Shown: positions 7,438-62,848 of the stretch, in pieces | How positions within the stretch are numbered: position 1 is the first letter of the stretch | Layout of the letters: the number at the start of each line of letters is the position of its first letter | Source: Candidatus Thorarchaeota archaeon | GTDB taxonomy: Archaea > Asgardarchaeota > Thorarchaeia > Thorarchaeales > Thorarchaeaceae | Assembly (NCBI GenBank): GCA_003345595.1 | Contig: PRDI01000075.1 | Coordinates: 1-64,000, forward strand | Length of the DNA: 64,000 bases | Reading direction: 5' to 3' | Program-made: the position numbers and the translations under genes | The notes under the pieces: model-generated | Told to the model about the DNA's origin: nothing | Database searches by the model: none | What the model saw: the letters and a program-made list of their open reading frames with translations, nothing else

Positions 7438-8745
7438 TCAGTCCTCCAAGAAGCGTTTCAAGTCCACCTTGGGGAACTCTGCTTTCTCGAACCCCTTTCC
7501 CTTTGTTTCAAGAGCCTTTGTACAATCGAAGCCAATCTTTGTCGTCATCTTTGTTCCTGGTTCCGCACTAGGATCAAGTGAGCTTCCCGGCTCACGCGCC
7601 TTTACATGCAAGCTCTTGTCGCCTTGGAAGCGGGTCGCCATCGCCCACTCTCTCTCTTGCTCGTTGTAGATATCAATGTCCTCATCGTAGACCCAGACAT
7701 GCTTTGCACTTGTATGCCCTGCAAATGCGCCCTCAATTGCCTTCAGACCATCATCCGGGCTTTTCTTCCTTATCTTCACAGCGACGTGCAGCCAGCTCGC
7801 GCCGCCCGGAGTAATGCTCGTGTCAAGGACTTCGACCCCACGTTCCTTGACCTTCTTGTAGACAGTTGGCTCTCGAGGCATCCCCATGAGTATCTTGTGC
7901 TCCAAACGTCCTGGAAGCAGCGCCTGCCAGATAGCTGTCTTCCTGTGGGTGATCTTCTTCACTTCGAAGACTGGTTCTTGTCGTACCACATCCACTGTTT
8001 CAGTCAGATCTATGAACGGCCCCTCGGAGTGTCTTTCCTTCTGAAACACCCTGCCCTCGAGTACAAACTCACAGTCTGCAGGTATCATTAGGTCCACGGA
8101 TTTTGCCTTTGTGACCTTGATTGGTTTCAGAGCATTGGCTATGTGCAGCTCGTCCACACCCGTTTCCACCGATGTCGCCGCAGCAACGAGAACTTCAGGT
8201 GTGTTACCAATGCAAAAGGCGACATCAACCTCTCCGTTCTTCTCAAGGAACTTGTGAAAGTCGCGGCCGCTGACAACTCTCACCACCATGTGGTTCTTGC
8301 CAATCTGCATCGCTCTGTGAAAATCCAGATTCTGTCCATACTGGGGGTCAGCAGAAACCACAACAGCAGAAGAGATGTAGGGCCCCCCATCGATTACGTT
8401 GTGCATGAGTATTGGCAGTTGATTCAAGTCCACGGTGCTCTCGACTACCTCTTGGCATGGGGCTGTCTTTGCCTTTTCTGGAGGGCTTCGGTGCTCTATT
8501 GCACTGGCCAGAGTGGGTATCATTTGATCAGGTCTGATACCAAAATAGTCTGCGATCTGTGTCTTGGTACAGAACAGATTGCCAACGACGCGATACGCAG
8601 ACTCTTTCAAGCTCTGAAACAGCACGGGTGTGGGTTCTAGAGCCTTTAGGACCCCTGCTATCTCCAAGTCCTTAGAGATGGGCTTGCGTACAGTCTTGAG
8701 AATGCCCTGCGTAGCTAGCTTCTTGATGTAGTCTTCCAGAATCAT
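7438..8745 (-). CDS. UbiD-family decarboxylase, likely anhydromevalonate-phosphate decarboxylase
   Basis: DGGPYISS, FHR, EGPF.D, EWAMATRFQ, SSLDPS, KIGFDCT; lies between mvk and AcnX genes. Confidence 0.85.
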   Translation of the reverse strand: MILEDYIKKLATQGILKTVRKPISKDLEIAGVLKALEPTPVLFQSLKESAYRVVGNLFCTKTQIADYFGIRPDQMIPTLASAIEHRSPPEKAKTAPCQEVVESTVDLNQLPILMHNVIDGGPYISSAVVVSADPQYGQNLDFHRAMQIGKNHMVVRVVSGRDFHKFLEKNGEVDVAFCIGNTPEVLVAAATSVETGVDELHIANALKPIKVTKAKSVDLMIPADCEFVLEGRVFQKERHSEGPFIDLTETVDVVRQEPVFEVKKITHRKTAIWQALLPGRLEHKILMGMPREPTVYKKVKERGVEVLDTSITPGGASWLHVAVKIRKKSPDDGLKAIEGAFAGHTSAKHVWVYDEDIDIYNEQEREWAMATRFQGDKSLHVKAREPGSSLDPSAEPGTKMTTKIGFDCTKALETKGKGFEKAEFPKVDLKRFLED

Positions 8746-42904: not shown

Positions 42905-43026
42905 TTCCAGTCTGGAGTGGTGGTCCTGAAGTCGGAGAGCCTCCCTTCGTTATATGACTTGCGTCAACACAGATTGGCGTAGAACCGGAATCTCTATAAA
43001 CTGAAGCTGGGCTCCGGGCGTTTTGT

Positions 43027-43167
43027 GGGCCAGTGGCTAAGCCAGGTATAGCGACAGGCTCTTACGTTTCTCAGTGGCCCCGCTGGGAGATGGAGATACC
43101 TGTTGGTCGGGGGTTCGAAAACCCCCCATATTCCATGGGGCGATCGACTATCCCCCCTGGCCCGCCA
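43027..43167 (+). tRNA. tRNA-Lys(CTT) with two introns: 37/38 (43065-43097, 33 nt) and T-loop 59/60 (43120-43150, 31 nt); CCA encoded
   Basis: GGGCCAG/CUGGCCC-G-CCA, ACAGG-CUCUUAA-CCUGU, GGGGG-UUCGAAU-CCCCC after splicing; 77 nt mature; TATAAA at 42995. Confidence 0.92.
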
Positions 43168-61321: not shown

Positions 61322-61427
61322 TGGCGCCGCCGAGAGGGCTCGAACCTCTGACCAACAACTGTCTGGCGTTCGCTTTGACTAGCAGGACGGTAACAGGCTG
61401 TCGCTCTGCCGACTGAGCCACGGCGGC
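61322..61427 (-). tRNA. tRNA-Asn(GTT) with 30-nt intron at 37/38 (61361-61390); CCA encoded
   Basis: GCCGCCG/CGGCGGC-G-CCA, ACAGC-CUGUUAA-GUUGU, AGAGG-UUCGAGC-CCUCU. Confidence 0.95.
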
Positions 61428-61906: not shown

Positions 61907-62012
61907 TGGTGGGCCCGGGGGGACTTGAACCCCCGGCGGGCAGGTTATGAGCCTGCTGCTTACGGCGCTCGCTCTGGAACGAGTGGGCTCTACCAAGCTG
62001 AGCTACGGGCCC
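61907..62012 (-). tRNA. tRNA-Ile2(CAT) with 29-nt intron at 22/23 in the D-arm (61961-61989); CCA encoded
   Basis: GGGCCCG/CGGGCCC-A-CCA (Ile-type acceptor, not the A1-U72 initiator), GCAGG-CUCAUAA-CCUGC; BHB helix UGGU/GCCG with AGA and UAA bulges. Confidence 0.88.
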
Positions 62013-62770: not shown

Positions 62771-62848
62771 GCCCCGGTGGTGTAGTCCGGCCCAGCATTG
62801 GGGACTTTCGCTCCCCCGACCCGGGTTCGAATCCCGGCCGGGGCACCA
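62771..62848 (+). tRNA. tRNA-Glu(TTC), intronless; CCA encoded
   Basis: GCCCCGG…GGGGA-CTTTCGC-TCCCC…CCGGG-TTCGAAT-CCCGG-CCGGGGC-ACCA; TTAATAA at 62738. Confidence 0.97.

Follow-up and report, generated by a model that had tools for sequence, protein, structure and literature searches.

A tRNA-Lys(CUU) gene with two predicted introns, one of them in the T loop, in a Thorarchaeota genome

Results and Discussion

A tRNA-Lys(CUU) gene interrupted twice

We analysed a 64,000-nt stretch of DNA (the window) on contig C75 of a Thorarchaeota (Asgard) MAG (G000; 2.73 Mb, 83% complete) and read a tRNA-Lys(CUU) gene on its forward strand whose cloverleaf is broken by two inserts. From sequence comparison it is very likely that this is a working gene with two protein-spliced introns, that the intron in the T loop was recently gained and has degenerated, and that a decoy hairpin formed by the T stem and the start of this intron is incidental. 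The features are as follows.

42995-43000 (+): TATA-like box TATAAA, 27-32 nt upstream of tRNA position 1 (read from the sequence; block conserved in relatives)
43027-43167 (+): tRNA-Lys(CUU) gene with encoded CCA, 141-nt precursor (sequence and in-silico splicing)
43027-43064 (+): exon 1, tRNA positions 1-37 (in-silico splicing; the same in G001, G002 and G003)
43065-43097 (+): intron 1, 33 nt, canonical position 37/38, strict hBHBh' motif (ARAGORN i(39,33) after removal of the T-loop insert)
43098-43119 (+): exon 2, tRNA positions 38-59 (in-silico splicing and orthologue comparison)
43109-43126 (+): decoy hairpin, GGGGGTT (positions 49-55), CGAA loop and AACCCCC (intron-2 bases 1-7) (constrained fold, ensemble and Rfam alignment)
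43120-43150 (+): intron 2, 31 nt, T loop at 59/60, relaxed BHB (equivalent to 43119-43149 at 58/59)
43145-43147 (+): intron-2 bases 26-28 (CGA), 3' strand of the central helix, pairing with G57, C56 and U55 (43115-43117) in the minimum-energy fold
43151-43167 (+): exon 3, tRNA positions 60-76 including CCA (in-silico splicing and orthologue comparison)

When both inserts were taken out, ARAGORN returned a 77-nt tRNA-Lys(ctt) including CCA with a perfect cloverleaf, in agreement with the preliminary description, which had read a tRNA-Lys(CTT) gene with two introns. ARAGORN made no tRNA call on the unspliced gene or after removal of the 37/38 intron alone; with only the T-loop insert removed, the gene was found in ARAGORN intron mode only, reported as i(39,33). 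Scans of the whole window by ARAGORN and at the Rfam gathering threshold both missed tRNA-Lys(CUU). In a sensitive Rfam scan of the 300-nt neighbourhood the precursor gene scored 29.7 bits (cut-off 29), in an alignment that pairs the T-stem strand with the C run opening intron 2, followed by a mismatched acceptor stem. The missed and mis-aligned calls of the covariance-model and ARAGORN scans are due to this competing hairpin.

The mature Lys(CUU) sequence had no second copy in the 83%-complete assembly. An ARAGORN "Lys(ctt)" call on contig C57 was considered as a second Lys(CUU) gene and rejected, since it is a mis-read class II tRNA. In an alignment of the upstream region, the block CTCTATAAACTGAA was kept in G001 and in two metagenome copies, and G002 carries TTTAAA. 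Judged by the usual archaeal spacing, the TATA-like box is a putative promoter.

Orthologues in sister species

G000 was compared with the three other species of its genus (G001, G002 and G003). The G002 Lys(CUU) gene has identical exons and the 37/38 intron only. The G003 gene, also with identical exons, carries a D-arm intron and a 37/38 intron. Neither contains the T-loop insert, and removal of the insert at 59/60 from the G000 gene yields exactly the orthologous sequence, with the T arm found in G002 (L003) and G003 (L009). The 7-nt UUCGAAU loop that the preliminary description expected to be restored is thus present as such in sister genes without the insert. Orthology by locus was established for G002, whose upstream flank aligns, and the G003 comparison is by exon identity. 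Rfam tRNA scores were 57.2 bits for the G002 gene and 67.5-67.9 bits for fully intron-less orthologues.

The same two-intron gene was found in four independent assemblies: G000, G001 and the metagenome contigs L105 and L109. The substitutions among them are few, namely in the apical five bases of intron 1 (to which intron-1 variation is confined), in the apical loop of intron 2 and at intron-2 base 31 in the 3' bulge, and all of them lie at sites unpaired in the BHB model. Across Thorarchaeia, Lys(CUU) genes have none to three introns, at positions about 20-23, 30/31, 37/38, 43/44, 53/54, 56/57 and 58-60.

The strict motif at 37/38

The insert at 37/38 has a complete BHB motif: a 4-bp helix between two 3-nt bulges, with an outer helix on each side. 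C32-U35 (CUCU) pairs with GGAG as first described, although one of the four pairs is a G·U and the other three are Watson-Crick pairs. UA|C and AU|A form the bulges, and the outer helix on the intron side is 7 bp long. Removal of the insert restores a 7-nt anticodon loop, CTCTTAA, which intron-less orthologues share. The minimum-energy fold favours a register shifted by one base at this motif.

Motif and cut register at 59/60

In the productive register, the central helix of the T-loop motif (UUCG/CGAC) consists of a U54·C mismatch and the pairs U55:A, C56:G and G57:C. The 5' bulge is formed by A58, A59 and intron base 1, and the 3' bulge by U, A and U60 (AA|A and UA|U). The exon-side helix is the T stem, and the intron-side helix opens with one A:U pair, next to which an A is bulged. 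The position and length of the insert, its mismatch and both bulges were all read as in the preliminary description. In the modelled ensemble, intron bases 26-28 pair with G57, C56 and U55 with probabilities of 0.69-0.77, and removal of intron 2 restores the 7-nt T loop UUCGAAU. Owing to the A run, the product is the same if the intron is placed at 58/59, yet by hand inspection of the sequence this placement forms no BHB and was rejected.

The preliminary description had also noted a perfect alternative BHB (UCGA/UCGA) one register over, so that the cut site would be ambiguous in silico. Such a register does exist. It uses the same three core pairs (U55:A, C56:G and G57:C) with A58:U added, so it is the same physical helix, and it is not perfect as a motif, since on its exon side U54 and U60 would have to pair. 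If EndA used it, both cuts would shift inward by one base, and a 9-nt T loop or mixed products would result. Ambiguity in the model is evident: by the nearest-neighbour model the one-over register is 4.3 kcal/mol more stable than the productive one, and in the ensemble A58:U(i25) has a probability of 0.74 compared with ~0 for A(i2):U(i25). Nevertheless, we regard cleavage in the one-over register as highly improbable. Its 3' bulge abuts the U54·U60 mismatch and its 5' bulge faces an unpaired A; the T loop is 7 nt long in every orthologue; and a 9-nt loop would probably cripple the sole Lys(CUU) decoder. Moreover, the homologous introns of tRNA-Ala(GGC) (L110) and of G001 tRNA-Arg(UCU) form a perfect UUCG/CGAA helix in the productive register. 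We concluded from the orthologues and the homologous introns that the predicted cut register is 59/60.

The motif is relaxed even by the standards of its group. We compared the BHB scores of 28 T-loop introns from Thorarchaeaceae and metagenomes, and this intron had the lowest score together with L115. A mismatch opposite position 54 was present in four other distinct introns of the comparison, so the relaxed form appears to be tolerated in this group. Since the productive register is the less stable one in the model and the BHB score is the lowest, splicing of the 59/60 intron could be inefficient or imprecise. Having the most degenerate BHB in the set, in a gene that standard scans either miss or score at the threshold, could also mean that the gene is a decaying pseudogene or that the T-loop insert is retained. 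This is very unlikely given that the exons are undamaged and do not differ from those of intron-poor sister genes, that the gene is conserved in four assemblies with a conserved promoter-like box upstream, and that it is the only Lys(CUU) gene found in the assembly.

Splicing enzymes and the proposed pathway

G000 encodes two EndA paralogues, on contigs C89 and C124, and RtcB, that is, genes for an endonuclease of the broad-specificity type and for an RNA ligase. The EndA paralogue of 188 aa matched the catalytic subunit of Aeropyrum pernix (3P1Z_B) at 4.5e-49, and the two align without gaps across the Crenarchaea-specific loop, where K44 is retained and R46 has become K. This loop and Lys44 confer EndA cleavage of relaxed or non-canonical motifs (Hirata et al. 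2011, PMC3241643), and (alpha-beta)2 EndA with this loop was reported in Asgard archaea (Kaneta et al., PMC5829648). The more divergent EndA of 241 aa is probably the structural subunit. The host resembles the A. pernix pre-tRNA-Thr system (PMC3241643) in having a close homologue of the catalytic EndA with the loop and Lys44 kept; the substrate in that system was a D-loop or mini-helix intron, whereas here it is a T-loop intron known from sequence alone.

We infer the splicing itself, the splice sites, the order of splicing and all steps after transcription. The transcription start probably lies between the TATA box and position 1, a few bases before the latter. An (alpha-beta)2 EndA would cut the strict BHB at 37/38, and it would cut the relaxed T-loop BHB at the junctions of A59 with intron base 1 and of intron base 31 with U60. 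Judging from the encoded enzymes and the orthologue comparison, RtcB would then join the exons and give the normal 7-nt UUCGAAU loop.

The competing T-stem hairpin

Intron-2 bases 1-7 are exactly complementary to G49-U55, with which they form a 7-bp hairpin, so the start of the intron can indeed pair with the GGGGG T stem as first proposed. With this decoy formed, the GGGG of the intron can pair with the real 3' strand of the T stem. Constrained folds of the cloverleaf at 37 °C gave -65.5 kcal/mol for the decoy hairpin and -65.8 kcal/mol for the true T stem. The modelled ensemble contained ~33% true T stem and ~21% decoy; in another 45%, the T stem had slipped along the C run by one base. By these models the decoy is a real competing fold.

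We then considered whether the match is unusual. An equal or better decoy arose in 2.6% of intron shuffles (p≈0.03); the match is only marginally unlikely because the intron is C-rich. Among related T-loop introns there was no significant enrichment, with 2 of 23 at p<0.05 where ~1 is expected, and the closest homologues (the Ala and Arg introns) keep only the 4-bp AACC/GGUU part. This part follows from the BHB design next to the palindromic TTCGAA loop. The emphasis that the preliminary description had placed on the decoy as a special feature was therefore not borne out. We think that the decoy is probably incidental, a by-product of having a C-rich intron hairpin next to a T stem rich in G: the start of the intron (AA and the C run) would be needed for the bulge and for the intron hairpin, and would match the G-rich T-stem strand by accident of composition.

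A functional decoy would sequester the T-stem strand and set the order or rate of processing (e.g., 37/38 splicing or end trimming first), or, ahead of splicing, it would present a hairpin resembling a T arm to a factor for modification or quality control. The near-equal fold energies and the ~21% share of the ensemble are in its favour, as is p≈0.03 against shuffles; the decoy is transcribed ahead of the true partner strand, and the 7-bp match occurs in all four assemblies. The four copies, however, are nearly identical, so that their conservation says little, the homologous Ala and Arg introns retain 4 bp only, there is no family-wide enrichment, and the C-rich hairpin adjoining the G-rich T stem accounts for the match. 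We consider a function unlikely. As an incidental structure, the competing hairpin may slow splicing, probably with no role of its own, and nothing suggests that it was selected. Given p≈0.03 and the introns L123 and L125, which also copy their own T stems, a non-negligible chance is left for a non-random cause, for instance local duplication or a conversion between the two helices.

Origin and relatives of the T-loop intron

A BLAST search found no other copy of the intron in its own genome. In 86 Thorarchaeaceae genomes, the exact pattern of the Lys(CUU) intron type was confined to G000 and G001, which made a covariance model necessary for the wider 59/60 class. The model, built on the T arm and the intron, was searched against the same 86 genomes and gave matches in 20 of them. 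In 23 of 24 matches, removal of the predicted 59/60 intron left a tRNA recognised by ARAGORN; 15 anticodon types were represented. On this evidence, 59/60 is a hot spot for predicted tRNA introns in Thorarchaeaceae and metagenomes.

The interior of the Lys(CUU) intron was compared with those of other introns. It is identical at 15 of 16 positions to the 59/60 intron of tRNA-Ala(GGC) (L110; p<=2e-4), and thus similar introns lie at the same position in tRNAs of different identity. The motif TCCATGG is shared in register with the 59/60 intron of tRNA-Lys(UUU) of the same genome (p≈0.005). The Arg(UCU) intron interior alone showed no significant similarity (p=0.16), and the Lys(CUU) 58/59 introns of two other genera were unrelated (p≈0.45-0.49).

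The simplest reading is that the intron was gained in the ancestor of G000 and G001, with the polarity of gain versus loss drawn from four genomes of one genus plus outgroups. An intron of the 59/60 family would have been acquired in this common ancestor of the host species and its nearest sister, and would since have degenerated, as A gave way to C opposite U54 and the intron helix gained two more bases. We also considered that the intron arose mainly by tandem duplication of the T arm, and rejected this. The intron ends do resemble two T-arm halves, but the palindromic TTCGAA loop dictates the TCGA part, the spacer is unlike the acceptor/CCA region, and other tRNAs have introns to which the interior is homologous. 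A tandem duplication may still have occurred, as L123 and L125 copy their own T stems.

The G000 tRNA-Lys(UUU) gene (C52:6349-6454, minus strand) has no anticodon-loop intron and carries a 29-nt 59/60 intron with a perfect BHB, an intron that all four species of the genus share. The two lysine tRNAs of this organism thus carry T-loop introns, and both would need T-loop splicing. In other lineages, the low-G+C metagenome contigs L106, L108 and L111 contain Gly(CCC) and Arg(GCG) 59/60 introns that start with AACCG and end with GGTCGA, also with a mismatch opposite U54. The AACCG...GGTCGA design at 59/60 may be widespread beyond Thorarchaeaceae.

Exchange of T arms between tRNA genes

The tRNA-Ala(GGC) gene in G001 and on a near-identical metagenome contig has a T arm resembling that of Lys(CUU) (identity at 15 of 17 exon bases) and the homologous 59/60 intron, and the 5' 48 nt of this G001-type gene are identical to those of the G002 Ala(GGC) gene. 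G002 Ala(GGC) has a different T stem with a 56/57 intron, and G003 Ala(GGC) has another T stem and no intron. Similarly, G001 tRNA-Arg(UCU) has a Lys-like T arm with a 59/60 intron; the tRNA-Arg(UCU) genes of G000, G002 and G003 have other T arms and no T-loop intron. These patterns tentatively suggest that T arm and intron move together by recombination. T-loop introns of Thorarchaeota could accordingly spread between tRNA genes as a DNA cassette with the T arm, by patch gene conversion, a proposal that we hold to be possible but rather doubtful. The cassette donor would be Lys(CUU), which has one and the same T arm whether or not the intron is present. T stems also change through ordinary compensatory substitutions. 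If correct, the cassette would be a concrete route for the arrival of archaeal tRNA introns, which was called open in a 2026 preprint (Goswami et al., 10.64898/2026.10.13.758758).

G001 contig C9 (L137, position 1) ends at the first bases of the Ala(GGC) T-loop intron, which nearly repeats the Lys(CUU) intron. Near-identical introns may break MAG assemblies and hide tRNA genes.

Comparison with known systems

Heavy interruption of Asgard tRNA genes has been published (2024, PMC11291895; Goswami et al. 2026 preprint, 10.64898/2026.10.13.758758). As in these two studies of the same phylum, we found several predicted BHB introns per gene, many of them in the T arm, which standard annotators miss and whose gains appear recent and repeated. 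The two studies differ from the present case in centring on Atabeyarchaeia and Jordiarchaeia/Freyrarchaeaceae; the word "Thorarchae" is absent from the preprint. They also reported almost no intron families common to different tRNA types, whereas the Lys(CUU) intron has a clear relative in tRNA-Ala(GGC).

Position 59/60 is a listed non-canonical intron position (Yoshihisa 2014, PMC4090602). As far as the Thermoproteales work (Sugahara 2008; Fujishima 2010) is summarised in PMC4090602, these archaea likewise use 59/60, have several introns per gene and similar introns at the same position across isoacceptors, and show a relaxed BHB, cut there by (alpha-beta)2 EndA. Within the same summary, the differences are that the present host is an Asgard archaeon and not a member of Thermoproteota, and that the intron sequences are unrelated.

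Multi-intron tRNAs and 59/60 introns are thus of a kind already known and common in Thorarchaeota, and taken alone, the present gene adds one to the interrupted tRNA genes for which the phylum is known. A recent T-loop intron with intron-free orthologues in the same genus is, however, a good substrate for studying BHB tolerance and register choice of Asgard EndA. Missed or mis-aligned genes of this type affect tRNA counts in Asgard MAGs, and a lead on intron movement between genes comes from the relatives in Ala, Lys(UUU) and perhaps Arg genes, all of which have a T arm that matches.

Other tRNA genes

Introns at 56/57 in different tRNA types (G002 Ala(GGC), L139; Lys(CUU) of other genera, L013, L036 and others) share the appearance …GATTTCC…CCCAA|AAAT, which hints at a second position-specific intron family across isotypes. 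The tRNA-Arg(UCU) gene of G000 (C106:12486-12593, plus strand) has C at position 33, as it does in all four species of the genus (L071-L074), in place of the near-universal U of other genera. The 37/38 intron of this gene has just two of the four central pairs, a relaxed motif. ARAGORN labels tRNA-Arg(UCU) as Pyl(cta) or Gln(ctg); the "tRNA-Pyl(cta)" on C106 was rejected as such, since alignment with other genera identifies it as tRNA-Arg(UCU). The divergent EndA paralogue, probably the structural subunit, at C124:5590-5847 (plus strand) lies between two tRNA-Arg genes (C124:3459-3536 and 7625-7724).

The window also holds Asn(GUU) (61322-61427, minus strand) and Trp(CCA) (61907-62012, minus strand) genes, each of ~103-106 nt and therefore interrupted, and an uninterrupted Glu(UUC) tRNA gene at 62771-62848 (plus strand).
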